A DNA stretch of 64,000 bases from Escherichia phage vB_EcoM_SA35RD, in sequence record OL960577.1, one strand, 5' to 3'. Each line of letters begins with the position of its first letter. Position 1 is the first letter of the stretch. Shown here in pieces: positions 23,086-57,849 of the stretch. Below the pieces are notes generated by a model, which was given only the letters and a program-made list of their open reading frames with translations, ran no database searches and was not told the DNA's origin. The position numbers and the translations under genes are program-made.

Positions 23086-24075
23086 TTATTTATAGTAAGA
23101 ATTATGATTTTCGAGATAGACTTGCTCAAGGAAATCATCCCAGAAACTCATATCTACTTTTTGTTGCATACCATTCTTGGCAGCTTGTTCTGACGCATGT
23201 TCAACTTGGTCAACGATATCTTCTAGGAATTCTTGTACAGTTTTAAACGTATGTTTACCAAGCTTAACATCGAGAATAAATGGAGCATCCTGAAGTGGGT
23301 AAACCAGGTCGCCGGTTTTGTAAATTTCCAATAATTGAAGTCCACCACGACACGCATGACTCAATGCTTTCCAGTCAATACCTTCGTTAGCTTCTGCCTT
23401 ACGAGCACGTTCACCATAGTTCTCTTCCAGTTTAACCAAGATGGCATTGAACTCTTTATTGGTTAACGTGTCTTGGAATTTACGGTCTAACAGATTATAG
23501 AATGTTTGCTTACCTGTTTTCTCGTTTTCGGTTTCAACCCACGAAGCAAATTCACCTATAGGCAGAACATTCTTCATATGTGATAAACGAATTACTGCAC
23601 CGTTATCAAAGTATTGTCCCCATTCATTAGAACGTTTAAGGGCTTGACGAAGAACAGCCAGTCGAGAACCCTTGACACCATATTTAGAAGCTTGCTTACG
23701 GACGTACCCTAAATAAGATTTCATGTTAGTGGTATAGAAACGAGACCTGTTATCTTGAATATACTTCCATACATCAGGCAAATCAGATTTAACTACTAAA
23801 CTTTGTGGAGTGTGAAGCATATCTAATGCGACAGTTTCACCGTCCGCAGCTAGTTTAAAGAAATATTTGAGACTATACAACTCATGGTCCACGTCGTCTT
23901 TTGTGTTCTTAGAAGATGTGTTATTCGTGTTCTTGCTCATATGTTCTTTAACGTTACCGGTCAAGATATCACGAGCATGAGGGACATAAATTTCTTTAAA
24001 ATCAACGTCAGATTCTGGGGTAGACGTTCCATAAAGGTGGCTACCAAAGTAGCCTTTCATAATTGTTTTCATCAT
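23086..24075 (-). CDS. putative nucleotidyltransferase-fold protein (329 aa)
   Basis: N-terminal GSHLYGTSTPESDVDF fits the Pol-beta-superfamily G-S-x(9-13)-D-x-D motif; otherwise uncharacterised. Confidence 0.45.
   Translation of the reverse strand: MMKTIMKGYFGSHLYGTSTPESDVDFKEIYVPHARDILTGNVKEHMSKNTNNTSSKNTKDDVDHELYSLKYFFKLAADGETVALDMLHTPQSLVVKSDLPDVWKYIQDNRSRFYTTNMKSYLGYVRKQASKYGVKGSRLAVLRQALKRSNEWGQYFDNGAVIRLSHMKNVLPIGEFASWVETENEKTGKQTFYNLLDRKFQDTLTNKEFNAILVKLEENYGERARKAEANEGIDWKALSHACRGGLQLLEIYKTGDLVYPLQDAPFILDVKLGKHTFKTVQEFLEDIVDQVEHASEQAAKNGMQQKVDMSFWDDFLEQVYLENHNSYYK
23087..23094 (-). promoter_or_regulatory. late promoter TATAAATA upstream of secreted small protein
   Basis: Forward tatttata, about 33 nt upstream of start at 23054. 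Confidence 0.5.
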
Positions 24076-24545
24076 TTAGCCTTATATTCAAGAGTAGGAC
24101 AGACTTTTTCTTTACGAGCTTTAAGGTATTCACCTATTAATGATTTCTTACGTTCAATAGGCTCAAGTCCATTTTTAATTCGTTCTTGGTTTTGCGCAAT
24201 GAGCTCAATTTCTTTATAATATTTTCTGTCGTTATATTTGTCTAACAACCAAGACGGACCAATTACCAACCCGGTAGCAATAAAAGCCATGACTGCTACC
24301 ATTAAAATGCCTACACCAATTGAAGCCGGAACTAATGTCCATAGACTGCTAAAAACAAAGAATTTAGTTAAAATTTCCTGGCCAATGATTGTGACTGCTG
24401 CTAAAATCGCAAATCCAATAATTGAAACAGCCAATACCGGGATTAACGTTTTCCAAAAATAAGCACACAACGTTTTCGGACGATTCCATGTACTATTGAA
24501 CGCGGCATAAAGTTTAAAGTGCCAAGAGTTTTCATTGATAATCAT
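24072..24545 (-). CDS. hypothetical membrane protein (157 aa)
   Basis: Three or four hydrophobic spans; stop overlaps next start. Confidence 0.5.
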   Translation of the reverse strand: MIINENSWHFKLYAAFNSTWNRPKTLCAYFWKTLIPVLAVSIIGFAILAAVTIIGQEILTKFFVFSSLWTLVPASIGVGILMVAVMAFIATGLVIGPSWLLDKYNDRKYYKEIELIAQNQERIKNGLEPIERKKSLIGEYLKARKEKVCPTLEYKAK

Positions 24546-25085: not shown

Positions 25086-25255
25086 TTATTCACCAATTAA
25101 AGTTTCAACAAAATTCACCAAAGCATTCTGGCAAGCATCAACCTGATTTTCGTAAAAGTCTCCGCTATCATTTACCGCATGATAAGCTACATCATTCAAA
25201 TCTGAATCGGCTTCACGTAAGTCACGGATAAGGTCCATCAATTTATTAGCTTGTT

Positions 25256-25372
25256 CACGGGTCATTTTACCATACTCGTTTCAATAAGATTCACTATGCC
25301 GTTTACCATGTTATAAGTAAACATCGGATAATTGTATTGTACTACAACATAAGCGATAAGCAAAAGTTTCAT
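25256..25372 (-). CDS. possible small hydrophobic peptide (38 aa)
   Basis: Hand-translated MKLLLIAYVVVQYNYPMFTYNMVNGIVNLIETSMVK after promoter cassette and GGAG RBS. Confidence 0.25.
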
Positions 25373-25400
25373 TTTGTTCTCCATTTGTTTTGGTAGGATT

Positions 25401-25430
25401 ACTATATCATAGTCCTACCAAGACGTAAAC
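25401..25430 (-). promoter_or_regulatory. early promoter cassette (-35 GTTTAC, -10 TATAGT)
   Basis: Read directly; leader CAAAACAAATGGAG. Confidence 0.45.
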
Positions 25431-25645
25431 TACCGATTGTGTTTTAAATGTTGATAAAGCTCTTCAACTTGTTTAGGGTCCAGGTAAATAACATCATCAT
25501 CTTGCTCAATGGAAATTCCGCCAGTATTACCTTCAACGAAATTACATTCGCATACTTCAACGGTGCGATATACATCACCAACTGGATGCCCAGGCTCCAG
25601 AACAATCACACCATCTTCAGAACAACCGCTTGGGTCATATAACAT
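25430..25645 (-). CDS. hypothetical protein, MLYDxxGxSEDGV family
   Basis: Track ORF 25430..25720 trimmed to MLYDPSGCSEDGVIVLEP. Confidence 0.4.
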   Translation of the reverse strand: MLYDPSGCSEDGVIVLEPGHPVGDVYRTVEVCECNFVEGNTGGISIEQDDDVIYLDPKQVEELYQHLKHNR

Positions 25646-25736
25646 TACAGTTTCCTCGCTAACCATGAAAAGAATAAACCAATTAAAACAGGTCCTACAG
25701 TCATTGTTAACCAAGCCCAAGGTTCAAGATAATAAA

Positions 25737-25901
25737 TCATCTCATGCTCCTGTGCCAACAGTTTCTTGGTTCACGTTTAAAAATTTCATCATGCATTGAT
25801 TGACAACCAACACAATATATCACCACCATATCATCTTCAGCGCTTTCAGGTAAAAGTTCAAGTACACCGTCTTCAGATTTTCCAGTATAATCGTAAAGCA
25901 T
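25737..25901 (-). CDS. hypothetical protein, MLYDxxGxSEDGV family paralogue
   Basis: Track ORF 25737..25928 trimmed to MLYDYTGKSEDGVLELLP. Confidence 0.4.
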   Translation of the reverse strand: MLYDYTGKSEDGVLELLPESAEDDMVVIYCVGCQSMHDEIFKREPRNCWHRSMR

Positions 25902-25908
25902 AATATCC

Positions 25909-26089
25909 TCACATAATCTCGTTAACATACATTTGCAATTCGGTGTGGGCTTCGGCCATCTTTTTCATAGCTCTGTTAATGTCGATGTCTCCATCTTCGC
26001 AACCATGAGCATTTTCCCAATCAGATACCGCATTAGCGTACTCTTCAATCAAAAACATTAACTTAGAAATTTTTTCTTTACGTGTCATA
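25909..26089 (-). CDS. hypothetical protein (about 59 aa)
   Basis: Track ORF 25909..26157; start set to MTRKEK downstream of promoter. Confidence 0.4.
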
Positions 26090-26115: not shown

Positions 26116-26144
26116 ACTATAACACAACCTGAGGAGAAGTAAAC
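26116..26144 (-). promoter_or_regulatory. early promoter cassette (-35 GTTTAC, 17 nt, -10 TATAGT)
   Basis: Read directly. Confidence 0.5.
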
Positions 26145-26189: not shown

Positions 26190-26492
26190 TTAGATAGATG
26201 TAGGCTCTAATTTTATTTTCATGAACTCGGCAAATTGTCTGGCAGTTTTTATGCCTTGTTCATGGCATTCAAATGCATCATCACAGGGGCTATTTTTGTA
26301 ATGCTTTGCCATATACTTATAGAATTTTTCAGAATTCTCGACATTTTGAATTTCAAACAAAGTATATACGTTTTTAATCCCTGATTCCATAAAGTTATCA
26401 AAATATGGGTCGGTGTACGCAGTACCAACGATAGGAGTTGTTGCTGCAAAAAACCCCAGCATCGCCATGACAGCTATCGCTCTTAAGGCCAT
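26190..26492 (-). CDS. rI: lysis-inhibition protein rI-like
   Basis: 100 aa; hydrophobic N-terminus; resembles T4 RI as I recall it; position next to tk. Confidence 0.6.
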   Translation of the reverse strand: MALRAIAVMAMLGFFAATTPIVGTAYTDPYFDNFMESGIKNVYTLFEIQNVENSEKFYKYMAKHYKNSPCDDAFECHEQGIKTARQFAEFMKIKLEPTSI

Positions 26493-26741: not shown

Positions 26742-26749
26742 TATTTATA
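26742..26749 (-). promoter_or_regulatory. late promoter TATAAATA
   Basis: Forward tatttata, about 25 nt upstream of ORF start at 26717. Confidence 0.5.
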
Positions 26750-27326
26750 ACAACCCTGTCAAATCATTCCAATGCTTCCGGCATAATGACACGTATCTAT
26801 CGGTATCACCAATTTCAATTTGACTGCCATCTGTAATTGGAAGTCCGTCTTCCGTGACTCTAGCTACCATTGTGGCCTTTTTACCACAATGACAGACACC
26901 TTTAAGTTCAACAAGCTTATCGGCAATAGCCATTAATGCTTGAGAACCTTCAAATAGATTACCTTTAAAATCTGTTCGTAGTCCATATGCCATTACCGGC
27001 ACATTGTATACGTCAACAATACGACTAAGTTGATACACCTTTTCAGTAGTTAAGAACTGAGCTTCGTCAACAAATACACAATGAATATCCTTTTGTGCTG
27101 CAGCCCATTTATAGAATTCAAAGATATCCATGTCTTTTGTAATTATATTGGCATCCTGACGAATACCAATACGAGAGACTATTTCACCTTTTGAATCGCG
27201 AGTATCAATAGCCGGTTTAAGAACTAATACACCCATGCCACGTTCTTTATAGTTGTGTGCGGCAGTAAGTAATGAAGCAGACTTACCAGCGTTCATAGCG
27301 GCATATGTAAAAATTAAACTAGCCAT
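26745..27326 (-). CDS. tk: thymidine kinase
   Basis: 193 aa; P-loop YAAMNAGKSASLL and C-terminal Zn-binding CHCGKKATM...CRKHW. Confidence 0.9.
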   Translation of the reverse strand: MASLIFTYAAMNAGKSASLLTAAHNYKERGMGVLVLKPAIDTRDSKGEIVSRIGIRQDANIITKDMDIFEFYKWAAAQKDIHCVFVDEAQFLTTEKVYQLSRIVDVYNVPVMAYGLRTDFKGNLFEGSQALMAIADKLVELKGVCHCGKKATMVARVTEDGLPITDGSQIEIGDTDRYVSLCRKHWNDLTGLL

Positions 27327-27335
27327 AAGAGTCCC

Positions 27336-27518
27336 TTATAGTGAATTCACGTAGTCAATGAGTTCTTGTTCTTTCCTGTCAAATGATTCCATCAATGCGT
27401 GATATTCTTCATCTGTTAAAGGAGCATATTCATCGTACGCATTGGTGGCTGCTTGTTCATCCAATAGGTCATGGATAAGTTCGAACAGTTTAGCTTTCTC
27501 TTCTTTAGTTAATTTCAT
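27336..27518 (-). CDS. hypothetical acidic protein (60 aa)
   Basis: Track ORF. Confidence 0.4.
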   Translation of the reverse strand: MKLTKEEKAKLFELIHDLLDEQAATNAYDEYAPLTDEEYHALMESFDRKEQELIDYVNSL

Positions 27519-27742
27519 TTAGGTTCACCTTCTTTAACGAAATCTGGGTAAGGGTAAAATCCTGAGTAAAACCCTTCACCTTTATGATTGCTACAACCTT
27601 TGTTCGAACAGTAACACCAATAATCAAAATCACAAGCCATTTCGTCATTGCATAAAGCAAAAACTACAGGCCATTCGCATTTTTCGCATTTAGCACCTGT
27701 AAGAATTTTTGTTTGACTCATAGCCATGTCACCTTTAAGCAA
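27515..27742 (-). CDS. hypothetical Cys-rich protein (75 aa)
   Basis: Multiple Cys/CxxC pairs. Confidence 0.4.
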   Translation of the reverse strand: MLKGDMAMSQTKILTGAKCEKCEWPVVFALCNDEMACDFDYWCYCSNKGCSNHKGEGFYSGFYPYPDFVKEGEPK

Positions 27743-27945
27743 TATTCTTCTACATGTTGTTTACGGCCTTTCTTATCAATAAAGGTATATTCAACGAATG
27801 TTCCGATGTAGTCTTTATCTACATCATGTGGACTATTAATTGGGCATTTGGTACGACAAATGCGTTCCCATTGACGAATAATTACTGCCTTATTCTTTGG
27901 GTCATATGGATGTGGATAATGTATATTCATAATAACGGTTCCCAA
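27718..27945 (-). CDS. hypothetical protein (75 aa)
   Basis: Track ORF. Confidence 0.4.
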   Translation of the reverse strand: MGTVIMNIHYPHPYDPKNKAVIIRQWERICRTKCPINSPHDVDKDYIGTFVEYTFIDKKGRKQHVEEYCLKVTWL

Positions 27946-53757: not shown

Positions 53758-56700
53758 CAGTAAAAGCGCCAGCAGTCACAAGTCTCAGAATATCCAAGTT
53801 GTCCGCTAACCAAGTTCAAATACGCTGGGATGACGTTGGTGCTAATTTCTACTATTTCGTAGAAATCGCTGAGACTAAAACGGCAGACGGGGAAATAATT
53901 CCCCCTGCCAGCTACAGATGGATAAATTTAGGATATACTCCTGATAGCAACTGGTTCGAAAGTAGCTTAGACCCATTAACTTCTTATATTATTCGTGTAT
54001 CAACTGCCGCTGAAGGCTTTGAGAGATCTGATTGGGTATATACCGAAATATTTGAATCATTTCAGACTAACGCGTATACATTTCAACATATGATTGAAAT
54101 GCAATTGGCTAACACTTTTATTAGAGAAAAATTTACAAATAACAACATGGCTTATGTCGATTTTAATAACGACACTATAATGGCAGCTCTAATGAATGAA
54201 TCGTTCCAATTTAGCCCTGCTTATGCGGATATTTCATCTATTAAAAATTTCATTATTGGCGAAAATGAGTATCATGAAATTCAAGGTTCGATTCAACAGG
54301 TGTGTCATGATATAAACCGTGTTTATTTGATGGAATCCGAAGGAATTCTTTATTTGTTTGAACGGTATCAGCCTGTGGTTAAAGTCTCTAATGATAAGGG
54401 ACAAACCTGGAAATCGGTTAAATTGTTTAATGACCGTGTAGGGTACCCTGTATCAAGAACAGTGTATTACCAGACAGGTTATACCACGTATGTTCTTGGG
54501 TATGATAAATTATTTTACGGCCGTAAATCAACTGACGTTCGTTGGTCTGCTGATGATGTGAGATTTAGTTCTCAAGATATAACATTTGCTAAAATTGGTG
54601 ACCAGTTAAATTTAGGATTTGATGTAGAAATATTTGGTAACTATGCATCATTACCTGCTAACGTATCACGTATTGCAGAAGCTATCGTTTGCAATGACGA
54701 TTATGTATACGTTGCTGCTCGAGATAAAGTTCGTTTTATTAAAACTAGTAATGCCCCTATTGATTCAGACCCGTTATCTCCGACATATTCCGAACGTTTG
54801 TTTGAACAAGAAACATTTAACATCACAGGTAACCCTAAGGCAGTTTGCTATAAAATGGATTCTGTCGGTGGTAAAATATTTGCACTGATTATTGGTGAAG
54901 TTGTTAATCTTAATGACGACCCGAGGACCACTCCTATTGTCGATTCTGCTGATAAGGGTGTTTACGTTCTAGACCATGATGCTGGCACATTTAAACGTGT
55001 GTTTGGTAATACTGAAGAAGAACGCCGTCGTATTGAACCTGGGTACACCAGTATGTCTACTGATGGTGTTGAGTTATCTATTTCATCTAGTAATTTTAAA
55101 TTTCTAGAATCGGATATTGTTGATGACCCGAAAACACAAATCAAGTACGGTTTAATCGGTGCTGTTAAATATGAGTATCCTCGCGAATGGTTGGCTGATA
55201 AACATTATCATATGATGGCATTTATTTCAACTGAAGACTCTCAATGGGAATCGTTCACTCCTCAACCGATGGAATACTATGCTGAGCCATTCTTTAGTTA
55301 TTCTAGAAAGTCTGGTACTCGATGTTGGATTAATAACTCAGACAAGGCCGTTGTAATTTATTCTGATTTACTTTACACTAAGGTTATTGAGAATCATCCA
55401 CTTAGTTCTTCAGACCGTGAAGTTCATGAATATTGGAAGGACGGCGACTGTACAATAGTGATGCCTAACGTAGATTTCACCGGATTTAAAAAATATGCAT
55501 CTGGCATGATTTTCTATAAAGCATCAGGTGAGATTATTTCTTATTATGATTTTAGTTACCGTGTTAGAGATAATGTTTCTATAATTTGGAAGCCTACTAA
55601 TATATTCTTAACAGCATCGTTACAAAACCAAGAAAAAGATACCACATGGACTCCTGTAGAAGAGAACGGTATTGCAGACCCAGATTTACGACCATTGCTC
55701 ACTACAATGATGCCAGAGTCTTATCTTTTAGATAATACAAACTTCGAAGCATTCTGCGAGGCTTATATTCAGTATCTTTCTGACGGTTATGGGACCCATT
55801 ATAACAACCTTTTGAATCTTATTAAAAATCAGTATCCGCGCGAAGAACATGCGTGGGAATATTTATGGTCTGAGATTTATAAACGAAACATTTACTTAAA
55901 CGCCGAAAAACGCGATTTAGTGTCTCGTTTCTTTGAATCAAGAAGTTATGACTTCTATTCAACTAAAGGAACTGAAGCATCGTATAAATTCTTGTTTAAA
56001 GTGCTTTATAACGAAGATGTTGAAATTGAAATTGAATCTAGTTCCGGGACCGAATATGATATCATCATTGAATCTGATTCGTTGACAGAAGATTTGGTCG
56101 GACAAACCATATACACCGCGACAGGACGTTGTAATGTGACGTATATCGAGAGAAGTTACTCTAAAGGTAAATTACAATGGACTGTAACAATTCACAACCT
56201 CTTAGGTCGTTTAATCCAAGGACAGGAAGTTAAAGCTGAAAGACTCCCTGGTTTTGAAGGTGAAATTGTTCGTGGTATTAAAGGTAAAGAGCTTTCTCAG
56301 AACAACATCGATTACATAAATCGTGGTAGAGCATACTACGTAATGAAGATTAAATCTAAACTTCCATCATCTCGTTGGAAATCAGACGTATTACGTTTTG
56401 TTCATCCGGTTGGATTTGGATTTATCGCAATTACCCTTCTCACAATGTTTATTAACACCGGATTAACACTTAAACATGTTGAAACCATTATTAATAAATA
56501 CAAAAACTATAAGTGGGATTCTGGATTACCGACTAAATATGCAGACCGAGTGGCTAAATTAGACCCACAAGGAAATGTTGAGTTTGACCCTATTACAGGT
56601 AAAGCGATATATGAAATAGGCCCTATGGCTGGTCAAGATTATCCATTGCCTGAAGATTATAATGCTGAAAACAATAACTCCATATTTCAAGGTCAACTTC

Positions 56701-56852
56701 CATCGGAACGACGTAAACTGATGAGCCCATTATTTGATGCGTCCGGAACAACATTCTCTAGATTTAGAGATTTGGTTGAACAACGGTTAATCGATAATGT
56801 AGGAAATCCAAGAGACCCCGTGAATCCACCACAGGTTAAATTAGATGAATGA
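53754..56852 (+). CDS. 7: baseplate wedge protein gp7
   Basis: 1032 aa, identical length to T4 gp7; synteny. Confidence 0.9.
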   Translation: MTVKAPAVTSLRISKLSANQVQIRWDDVGANFYYFVEIAETKTADGEIIPPASYRWINLGYTPDSNWFESSLDPLTSYIIRVSTAAEGFERSDWVYTEIFESFQTNAYTFQHMIEMQLANTFIREKFTNNNMAYVDFNNDTIMAALMNESFQFSPAYADISSIKNFIIGENEYHEIQGSIQQVCHDINRVYLMESEGILYLFERYQPVVKVSNDKGQTWKSVKLFNDRVGYPVSRTVYYQTGYTTYVLGYDKLFYGRKSTDVRWSADDVRFSSQDITFAKIGDQLNLGFDVEIFGNYASLPANVSRIAEAIVCNDDYVYVAARDKVRFIKTSNAPIDSDPLSPTYSERLFEQETFNITGNPKAVCYKMDSVGGKIFALIIGEVVNLNDDPRTTPIVDSADKGVYVLDHDAGTFKRVFGNTEEERRRIEPGYTSMSTDGVELSISSSNFKFLESDIVDDPKTQIKYGLIGAVKYEYPREWLADKHYHMMAFISTEDSQWESFTPQPMEYYAEPFFSYSRKSGTRCWINNSDKAVVIYSDLLYTKVIENHPLSSSDREVHEYWKDGDCTIVMPNVDFTGFKKYASGMIFYKASGEIISYYDFSYRVRDNVSIIWKPTNIFLTASLQNQEKDTTWTPVEENGIADPDLRPLLTTMMPESYLLDNTNFEAFCEAYIQYLSDGYGTHYNNLLNLIKNQYPREEHAWEYLWSEIYKRNIYLNAEKRDLVSRFFESRSYDFYSTKGTEASYKFLFKVLYNEDVEIEIESSSGTEYDIIIESDSLTEDLVGQTIYTATGRCNVTYIERSYSKGKLQWTVTIHNLLGRLIQGQEVKAERLPGFEGEIVRGIKGKELSQNNIDYINRGRAYYVMKIKSKLPSSRWKSDVLRFVHPVGFGFIAITLLTMFINTGLTLKHVETIINKYKNYKWDSGLPTKYADRVAKLDPQGNVEFDPITGKAIYEIGPMAGQDYPLPEDYNAENNNSIFQGQLPSERRKLMSPLFDASGTTFSRFRDLVEQRLIDNVGNPRDPVNPPQVKLDE

Positions 56853-57849
56853 TTCAAGTGTTATCTATCGTGCAATAGTTACATCAAAATTTAGAACAGA
56901 GAAAATGCTGAATTTTTATAATTCAGTTGGGGATGGAGATGATAAGAACTCCATTTATATTACGTTTGGACGTTCAGAGCCTTGGGCGTCAAATGAAAAT
57001 GAGGTGGGCTTCGCCCCACCTTATCCTACAGATTCTGTTCTTGGTGTTACCGATATGTGGACCCATATGATGGGTACCGTTAAAGTTTTACCTTCAATGT
57101 TAGATTCTGTTATTCCTAGACGTGATTGGGGAGATGTACGATATCCAGACCCTTACACGTTTAGAATTAACGATATAGTCGCATGTAATACTGCTCCGTA
57201 CAACGCGACAGAAGTTGGAGCCGGTTGGTTAATTTACCGTTGTTTAGATGTCCCTGACGTAGGGCTCTGTTCAATAGAATCTTTAGATAATAAAGATGAA
57301 TGTCTTAAATTAGGTGGTAAATGGACTCCGTCTGTTCGTTCTATGTCTCCTCCTGAAGGCAGAGGCGATGCTAATGGGGTTATCGAAACCGGTGATGGAT
57401 ATATTTGGGAATATCTTTATGAGATTCCTGCCGATGTGTCAATTAACCGTTGCACTAATGAATATCTTGTAGTTCCATGGCCGGAAGAAATTAAAGAAGA
57501 CCCCACCCGTTGGGGATATGAAAATAACTTAACTTGGCAACAAGACGACTACGGCTTGATTTATCGTGTTAAAGCTAATACAATGCGGTTTAAAGCATAT
57601 TTTGATTCTGTTTATTTCCCTGAGGCAGCTTTGCCAGGTAACAAGGGTTTTAGACAGATATCAATTATCGCAAACCCATTAGAAGCTAAGAAAAATCCAA
57701 ATGACCCTAATGTTAAAGCAGAAAAGGATTATTACGACCCTAGAGACCTGCAACGTCATTCTGGTGAAATGATTTATATGGAAAACCGACCACCTGTTAT
57801 TATGGCAATGGACCAAACAGAAGAAATTAACATTTTGTTTATGTTTTAA
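56845..57849 (+). CDS. 8: baseplate wedge protein gp8
   Basis: 334 aa as T4 gp8; synteny. Confidence 0.9.
   Translation: MNDSSVIYRAIVTSKFRTEKMLNFYNSVGDGDDKNSIYITFGRSEPWASNENEVGFAPPYPTDSVLGVTDMWTHMMGTVKVLPSMLDSVIPRRDWGDVRYPDPYTFRINDIVACNTAPYNATEVGAGWLIYRCLDVPDVGLCSIESLDNKDECLKLGGKWTPSVRSMSPPEGRGDANGVIETGDGYIWEYLYEIPADVSINRCTNEYLVVPWPEEIKEDPTRWGYENNLTWQQDDYGLIYRVKANTMRFKAYFDSVYFPEAALPGNKGFRQISIIANPLEAKKNPNDPNVKAEKDYYDPRDLQRHSGEMIYMENRPPVIMAMDQTEEINILFMF

Follow-up and report, generated by a model that had tools for sequence, protein, structure and literature searches.

A probable mosaic recombination joint with an in-frame hybrid ORF in a JS09-like Mosigvirus (rI-nrdC hyperplastic early region)

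The window analysed here (the whole stretch of DNA, 64,000 nucleotides) belongs to a T-even phage, a Mosigvirus of the JS09/RB69-like type, and the 901 bp around the finding are 95-98% identical to about 19 Mosigvirus records of the JS09/PhAPEC2/RB69 group. The locus is the rI-nrdC hyperplastic early region, where all genes lie on the minus strand. An earlier note on this DNA had drawn attention to two small neighbouring ORFs, called here ORF A and ORF B, that begin with the same motif, and had read them as the local duplication of a small Zn-binding protein. From upstream to downstream, the region is organised as follows.

26745-27326, minus strand: tk
Between tk and rI in the gene order, minus strand: rI.1
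26190-26492, minus strand: rI
26116-26143, minus strand: T4-early-type promoter-like site (TTTACT-16-TATAGT, TG extended), an inferred promoter upstream of a four-gene unit
25909-26088, minus strand: mobD.2a-like gene, 59 aa, DUF7438 (PF24219, 61 bits), the first gene of the four-gene unit
25737-25901, minus strand: ORF B, 54 codons, an in-frame chimera (MLYDYTGKSEDGVLELLPES...CWHRSMR)
25645-25740, minus strand: TM-peptide gene, 31 codons, with a single TM (MIYYLEPWAWLTMTVGPVLIGLFFSWLARKL; phrog_12165; equal to VR7 ORF105c), donor-derived
25430-25645, minus strand: ORF A, a full-length DUF7189 gene, 71 aa (MLYDPSGCSEDGVIVLEPGH...LKHNR)
25385-25432, minus strand: PeSL-like element, TTTACG-17-TATAGT over a stem-loop of 9-12 bp, directly after the ORF A stop and before the gene of a mobD.2-like peptide
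After ORF A and the PeSL-like element, minus strand: the mobD.2-like peptide, a tk.1-like gene, mobD.1 and nrdC.11

The four-gene unit (mobD.2a-like gene, ORF B, TM gene and ORF A) is flanked by the promoter-like site at 26143-26116 and the PeSL-like element at 25432-25385. The hairpin of the latter (TTGGTAGGA...TCCTACCAA) has a dG of -15.7 kcal/mol and a z of -4.5, with 0 of 200 shuffles as stable; PeSLs are defined in PMC4122927 and PMC2839356. Within the unit, ORF B has as its RBS the resident GAGGA just upstream of its start, its stop overlaps the start of the TM gene (ATGA), whose AGGAG Shine-Dalgarno lies within the last codons of ORF B, and a second overlap (TAATG) links the TM stop with the start of ORF A. 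Of the sigma-70-like sites in the region, the best-matching one (TTGGCA-18-TATTAT, 10/12, 25729-25758, minus strand) covers donor-derived sequence at the 3' end of ORF B and the first part of the TM gene; chance is its probable cause, though it could be an internal promoter for ORF A. Longer ORF starts, which do occur in some database entries, were considered and rejected (a 63-aa form from ATG 25928, and a 96-aa form from TTG 25720), since homology, RBS and most annotated relatives favour the MLYD starts.

The mobD.2a-like gene is resident Mosigvirus sequence, with a DNA identity to RB69/moskry of 94.8-97.8%. It is one of three DUF7438 paralogues of about 59-60 aa (27336-27518, 25909-26088 and 25086-25265, all on the minus strand, 57-62 bits each), which the annotations of relatives call mobD.2a, 'tk.1/helicase loader' and similar; DUF7438 is a family of small helical proteins, amplified here inside one hyperplastic region. 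A further cassette difference in the same region is found between nrdC.11 and mobD.1, where the window encodes a 157-aa multi-pass membrane protein (24072-24545), and T4 (56429-57208) has the mobD HNH homing endonuclease.

Both ORFs of the pair are confirmed at the positions listed above, on the minus strand, and both begin MLYD(P/Y)(S/T)G(C/K)SEDGV. Pairwise BLASTP aligns them over residues 1-18, with 12 of the 18 identical (E=6e-6), and both pass the gathering threshold of the DUF7189 profile PF23819, so that their similarity is a real homology and exceeds what a shared initiation region would leave. ORF A is a full-length member of this family (104.4 bits, residues 1-71 against profile positions 1-68 of 68). 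ORF B, in turn, reaches 35.1 bits (cutoff 27) with its residues 1-31 and only the profile positions 1-31, which corresponds to a fragment and not to a full member. Likewise, in PHROGs, ORF A belongs to phrog_4844, and ORF B to phrog_25948 with a secondary phrog_4844 match over residues 1-34. The similarity between the two proteins ends at around residue 18-31, that is, within their first third to half.

What follows that point in ORF B has a different origin. When GenBank phages were searched with ORF B by tblastn, the matches fell into two disjoint types: residues 1-47 match the single DUF7189 gene of RB69-type Mosigviruses, and residues 15-54 or 27-54 match annotated TraR/DksA C4 zinc-finger (ZnF) proteins of Dhaka-, Gapriver-, Kanagawa-, Karam- and Slopek-type phages and of jumbo phages. 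The homology of the 3' half of ORF B to the ZnF genes also holds at the DNA level. ORF B is the 5' end of the resident DUF7189 gene fused in frame to the 3' end of a donor gene for a TraR/YbiI-type zinc finger. Its composition is MLYDYTGKSEDGVLELLPESAEDDMVV followed by IYCVGCQSMHDEIFKREPRNCWHRSMR, where the resident parent, moskry_123, reads MLYDYTGKSEDGVLELLPESAEDDMVVMFCKNG... and the donor ZnF of PSD2001 reads ...IPEARRQAIKGVIYCVGCQSMHDEIFKREPRNCWHRSMR. The segments of ORF B and the two junctions of the locus are the following.

25824-25901, minus strand: ORF B codons 1-26, resident Mosigvirus allele, with 100% DNA identity to the single-copy gene of moskry/RB69 (ORF107c), and 81/81 nt to moskry_123 over nt 1-81 of ORF B
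25819-25823, minus strand: left junction, a 5-nt microhomology (GTGAT) inside the 12-nt patch GTGATnTnTTGT, in which parent and donor are 10/12 identical
25737-25818, minus strand: ORF B codons 28-54 and stop, the last 27 codons of the donor ZnF gene (a Gaprivervirus TraR/DksA C4 gene, VR7/PSD2001)
25479-25482, minus strand: right junction, a shared TGGA inside the homeologous 3' end of DUF7189

The C-terminal 27 residues of ORF B are identical (27/27) to those at the end of a TraR/DksA-type protein of 85 aa. This donor ZnF matches PF01258 (36 bits), arranges its cysteines as C40xxC43-x17-C61xxC64 and has among its relatives YbiI of E. coli (2KGO, E=4e-9) and TraR of the F plasmid (5W1S, E=1e-4), with VR7 ORF106c and JS10 'PA4870' as phage homologues. 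Out of the CxxC-x17-CxxC arrangement of a C4 finger, ORF B keeps only C30xxC33, the second CxxC, equivalent to C61/C64 of the donor; the first CxxC and the IPEARR motif are missing, and PF01258 gives no match in ORF B at E<=1. The N-terminal helix typical of TraR/DksA is also absent, residues 1-26 being DUF7189 and not the MAVGFAKDGAEQ... helix of the donor. As a DUF7189 protein, ORF B is equally incomplete, without the beta-sheet core and, with a C-terminus that reads ...EPRNCWHRSMR, without the C-terminal helix motif of the family. TraR inserts its N-terminal helix into the secondary channel of the RNA polymerase (5W1S/6N57 complexes), and we infer that ORF B would be unable to serve as an RNA-polymerase binder of the TraR/DksA type or as a C4 zinc finger.

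The zinc-binding part of the earlier reading rested on the Cys pairs of the two ORFs (CECNF in ORF A, CVGCQ in ORF B). These pairs are present in both, but they are not homologous to each other: CVGCQ does derive from a zinc-finger protein, of which it is only one half, foreign to the DUF7189 part, whereas CECNF is specific to the Gaprivervirus allele of DUF7189, its Cys34 aligning mostly with Trp in other members. An alignment of 12 DUF7189 sequences has no invariant or near-invariant Cys, and no Cys/His column conserved before the C-terminal LKHNR, in which His69 is invariant; the invariant positions are Y3, G12, Q48, L55, Q59, E61, L63, Y64, K68, H69 and N70. Both observations argue that the domain shared by the two ORFs is not a Zn-binding one, as far as it can be judged from the alignment. 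A genuine small protein of the Zn type is found about 2 kb upstream, where a Cys-rich ORF of 68-75 aa (27515-27742, minus strand) matches PF23895, 'Phage zinc binding domain', with 101 bits; its overlapping neighbour (27718-27945, minus strand) belongs to DUF7202 (131 bits).

DUF7189 is a tiny family, with 16 matches at E<=1e-3 among 1.84 billion cluster representatives, and its named members include RB69 ORF107c, VR7 ORF104c and JS98 ORF094c. ORF A carries both the MLYDPxGSSENG N-terminus and the LDxxQVExLYxxLKHNR C-terminal helix of the family. Its AlphaFold model (mean pLDDT 74.8) consists of four beta-strands and a C-terminal helix (57-69). Conservation in the family is highest over the N-terminal 13 residues, yet these are modelled as a low-confidence coil. 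The comparison of the model with PDB folds gave nothing significant (best E=0.79, small barrels of the PWWP/SH3/Tudor type, TM<=0.41), only family members were significant in BFVD, and no PDB match came from a sequence-profile search based on the family alignment. A kinship to the MobD.1/T4 y05I domains, suspected from a faint Pfam match (E=0.073) and from BFVD ranks 10 and 28, was rejected with an hhalign probability of 0.5%. A literature search gave no paper on DUF7189, nor any on mobD.x gene names that was relevant to ORF A or ORF B. ORF A would represent the working DUF7189 copy, an early, accessory, non-Zn protein made of a small beta-sheet and a C-terminal helix; as a guess from its context, it might be a binding protein directed at the host. 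In some single-copy Mosigvirus-like contigs, represented by the metagenomic proteins P0005, P0007 and P0009 (equivalent to 25262-25645 of the window), the TAG stop of DUF7189 is replaced by CAG, resulting in a read-through of 124-125 aa across the promoter/stem-loop into the 40-aa mobD.2-like membrane peptide (precomputed PF23819 plus PF26864).

The limits of the foreign DNA can be placed by comparison with both parents. Aligned to moskry, the window matches at 26600-25812 (97.8%) and at 25482-25000 (96.3%) with nothing aligning between, and RB69 behaves likewise; the stretch from 25823 to 25434 aligns to the Gapriverviruses PSD2001 (91.8%) and VR7 (89.2%). The 344-nt patch taken alone is 90-95% identical to about ten Gaprivervirus records among the matches listed. 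This donor patch, of 336-345 bp, stands in place of about 65 bp from the centre of the resident gene, and contains the 3' end of the ZnF gene, the 31-codon TM gene and codons 1-55 of DUF7189. In VR7/PSD2001, the same order is found, ZnF (85 aa, ORF106c), TM (31 aa, ORF105c) and DUF7189 (71 aa, ORF104c), with identical ATGA and TAATG overlaps. Following the informative positions site by site, the last resident-specific site on the left is 25824 and the first donor-specific one 25818; on the right, donor-specific sites end at 25483 and resident-specific ones resume at 25478. ORF A, compared with the other DUF7189 members, is itself a mosaic of two alleles, with donor codons 1-55 and resident codons 56-71, and is still a complete DUF7189 protein.

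The makeup of the chimera, the two breakpoints, the order of the donor genes and the phage distribution described below can be taken as established. We also consider it very probable that a mosaic joint, left by recombination in the rI-nrdC hyperplastic early region of this JS09-like Mosigvirus, accounts for the 'tandem pair', with ORF B as its scar. The ancestor would have carried one DUF7189 gene, like RB69 ORF107c or moskry_123, between mobD.2a and the promoter/stem-loop element. Upon co-infection with a Gaprivervirus-like T-even phage, having the order TraR-like ZnF, 31-aa TM peptide and DUF7189, a donor patch of about 340 bp would have been swapped in for the central 65 bp or so of the resident gene. 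The left crossover would be illegitimate, joining resident codon 27 to ZnF codon 58 at the GTGAT microhomology, and the right one homeologous, within the conserved 3' ends of both DUF7189 genes. Since the left join would have fallen in frame by chance, a hybrid ORF B of 54 codons would be formed, starting at the resident RBS and ending at the native stop of the ZnF gene, and this native stop would keep the ATGA and TAATG overlaps to the TM gene and to the rebuilt ORF A.

Such an exchange resembles two known processes without coinciding with either of them. The junction, placed in a 5-nt identity within a 10/12-nt patch, recalls the microhomology-mediated recombination and deletion of T4, but the event proposed here would be inter-genomic, involving two genera, and has a homeologous crossover as its counterpart. 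In phage T4, illegitimate recombination and deletion at microhomologies include the rII deletions between short direct repeats. The mosaicism of T4-type hyperplastic regions is well known (PMC2839356, PMC4122927), and the PeSL-mediated modular shuffling described for them (Arbiol et al. 2010, PMC2839356; Comeau et al. 2014, PMC4122927) shares with our case the sort of early accessory region, the promoter or promoter-plus-stem-loop borders and the insertion of a cassette between close relatives. However, even though a PeSL-like element follows ORF A, both crossovers lie inside coding sequence and not in PeSLs, leading to a chimeric ORF instead of a clean gene-cassette swap.

The same joint might also have been reached in two steps, through the insertion of a larger donor block (e.g., mobD.3-ZnF-TM-DUF7189) downstream of the resident gene, followed by a microhomology deletion between codon 27 and ZnF codon 58 that would have created ORF B. 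T4-type deletions form between short repeats, and GTGAT at the left joint fits such a deletion, as does the position of the right junction at the very end of the gene in most carriers. However, no Mosigvirus with an intact ZnF gene beside the resident gene surfaced in the searches of phage collections, the protein search with ORF B returned ZnF-part-only matches from other phage groups and one place in each of the listed JS09-type records, and a single double-crossover is more parsimonious. We consider the two-step route unlikely.

An 81-nt probe across the left joint was used, and a record covered in full was counted as a carrier. Full coverage was found in 19 GenBank/RefSeq records, all of them Mosigvirus-like coliphages, a number that includes duplicate GenBank/RefSeq entries for PhAPEC2, HX01, ST0 and JS09. 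The other 153 probe-matching records have less than 80% coverage, and those listed end at the junction, which corresponds to an undisrupted single gene; an exact search of IMG/VR viral contigs with the junction 26-mer gave 0 matches. In GenBank, PhAPEC2_95 and PhAPEC2_93 are both noted as 'similar to RB69ORF107c', and JS09_077 as similar to JS98 gp095. The annotators recorded these separate similarities only, and no description of the chimera itself was found.

The locus was extracted and its sequence checked in 14 carrier phages. Two variants of the left junction exist, JS09/JN02 resolving two informative sites downstream (VVMFC/VGC). The right junction takes four positions in these 14 relatives: before DPKQ in this window, between ASQV and EELYQH in TH58, just ahead of the His69 codon (H of KHNR) in HX01/JS09/JN02, and, in the remaining carriers examined, within the last two codons, another 3-6 nt towards the 3' end. 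Variable joints are what continuing homologous exchange would be expected to produce, and the sequences fit one founding event with ongoing homologous exchange with single-copy Mosigviruses thereafter; independent events steered by the same microhomology may be the alternative. The metagenomic ORF P0019/L022 (ENA scaffold of 673 nt, 473-667) has its first 72 nt (24 codons) as in the resident DUF7189 allele and then another tail, acidic and of low complexity (ESGDIEEGNGNDG...EDDDMMYF...), with a different upstream context and a divergence about 6-10 nt upstream of the left junction of the window. In P0028, likewise, another N-terminus precedes ...DDDMVVIYCVGCQ....

In 13 of the 14 relatives, ORF B is intact, in frame and 54-55 aa long, PhAPEC2 being the exception with C48stop; a 3-nt indel is tolerated among them, and not one of 1 or 2 nt. 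Decayed forms are also found in protein databases, namely a 49-aa truncation from contigs of about 172 kb (P0027), a frameshifted 36-aa form (P0017) and a C30Y form in a metagenomic cluster (P0025). The pooled pN/pS is 0.18 for the TM gene, 0.24 for ORF A, 0.09 for the mobD.2a-like gene and about 0.23 for ORF B, a value that may reflect some constraint on ORF B and that comes from only 10 variable sites in young, recombining lineages, too few to split 'functional' from 'young scar'. Most likely, ORF B would be a tolerated, translated and largely functionless scar that keeps the coupling to the two genes downstream. Its main effect would be the delivery of ribosomes to the coupled TM gene and ORF A, and its in-frame state would be tolerated, perhaps favoured, because of it.

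It is distinctly unlikely, in our opinion, that ORF B, with the same recombinational origin, has by now become a functional new gene, in which the N-terminal motif of DUF7189 (MLYDxxGxSEDGV), probably unstructured, would act as a portable partner-binding module on the conserved basic tail of the TraR-like protein. Its intactness in nearly all relatives examined and its low pN/pS would be in line with this, together with its retention by isolates from Europe, Asia and North America, the conservation of an N-terminus modelled as a low-confidence coil, and the recurrence of the first 24 codons ahead of another tail in P0019/L022. However, the nonsense, frameshift and Cys-to-Tyr variants are independent of one another, ORF B lacks one half of the zinc finger and, of the TraR fold, all of the N-terminal helix, the signal of selection comes from those few variable sites, and intactness would also be expected if only the in-frame read-through to the ATGA overlap were selected. 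A further version of this proposal, which we regard as a long shot, presents ORF B as a newborn functional gene with a portable, probably disordered DUF7189 peptide, and the acidic GAA/GAT run of codons 19-25 as a recurrent breakpoint, hinted at by P0019/L022 and P0028. The alternative fusion of P0019 had no tblastn match in GenBank phages, its only contig measures 673 nt, and the claim of a recurrent breakpoint drawn from it is anecdotal.

The scar being our preferred reading, the local tandem duplication of a small Zn-binding gene with later divergence, as first suggested for this pair, is hardly tenable. Homologous N-termini and Cys pairs in both ORFs could be taken as its traces, but the copies of a recent duplication should be closest to each other and alike at synonymous sites. 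Instead, the DNA of ORF A and ORF B is 59% identical over the first 54 nt and 51% (41/81) over the first 81 nt; of the 12 amino acids in common, just 5 are encoded by the same codon, third codon positions match in 6 of 18 cases, and the synonymous sites between both segments are saturated. Each N-terminus is far closer to the allele of a different genus, that of ORF B to the single-copy moskry_123 of the Mosigvirus moskry, with which it shares all 81 nt, and that of ORF A to the Gaprivervirus PSD2001 gene (74/81), which indicates that they are alleles of two phage lineages united by recombination. The TraR-like C-terminus of ORF B, the lack of a Cys conserved across DUF7189 and the breakpoints themselves contradict a duplication as well, and the Gapriverviruses show synteny for the TM gene between the two ORFs and for the 3' end of ORF B. 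Copy number points in the same direction, the relatives examined having one full copy or none. The search with ORF A gave a single matching place in every record matched; RB69 and moskry, the single-copy Mosigviruses examined, have one undisrupted DUF7189 gene at the locus, and JS10 (Dhakavirus), VR7/PSD2001 (Gaprivervirus) and PEi20 (Kanagawavirus) have one with a ZnF gene ahead of it. The rI-nrdC.11 region of T4 has no homologue of DUF7189, the TM peptide or the ZnF gene (best tblastn E=0.13). A full copy accompanied by an N-terminal fragment is found only in JS09-type Mosigviruses. An assembly or annotation artefact in the form of a chimeric contig has a negligible chance, given that 19 independently sequenced records share the junction in identical or nearly identical form, with flanks that have co-diverged.

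For annotators, the 54-aa 'hypothetical protein' of phrog_25948 is a DUF7189::TraR-like chimera, and neither a separate family nor a zinc-finger protein. The locus also serves as a cautionary case, as N-termini common to adjacent ORFs need not signal a duplication. For the T-even phages, it offers a base-pair-resolved case of how new small ORFs would be made by an inter-genus patch, the hybrid ORF being in frame and retained by many isolates. This is ordinary phage mosaicism and no new biological system, and it may be of use to those who study how genes arise and decay in the accessory regions of phages.
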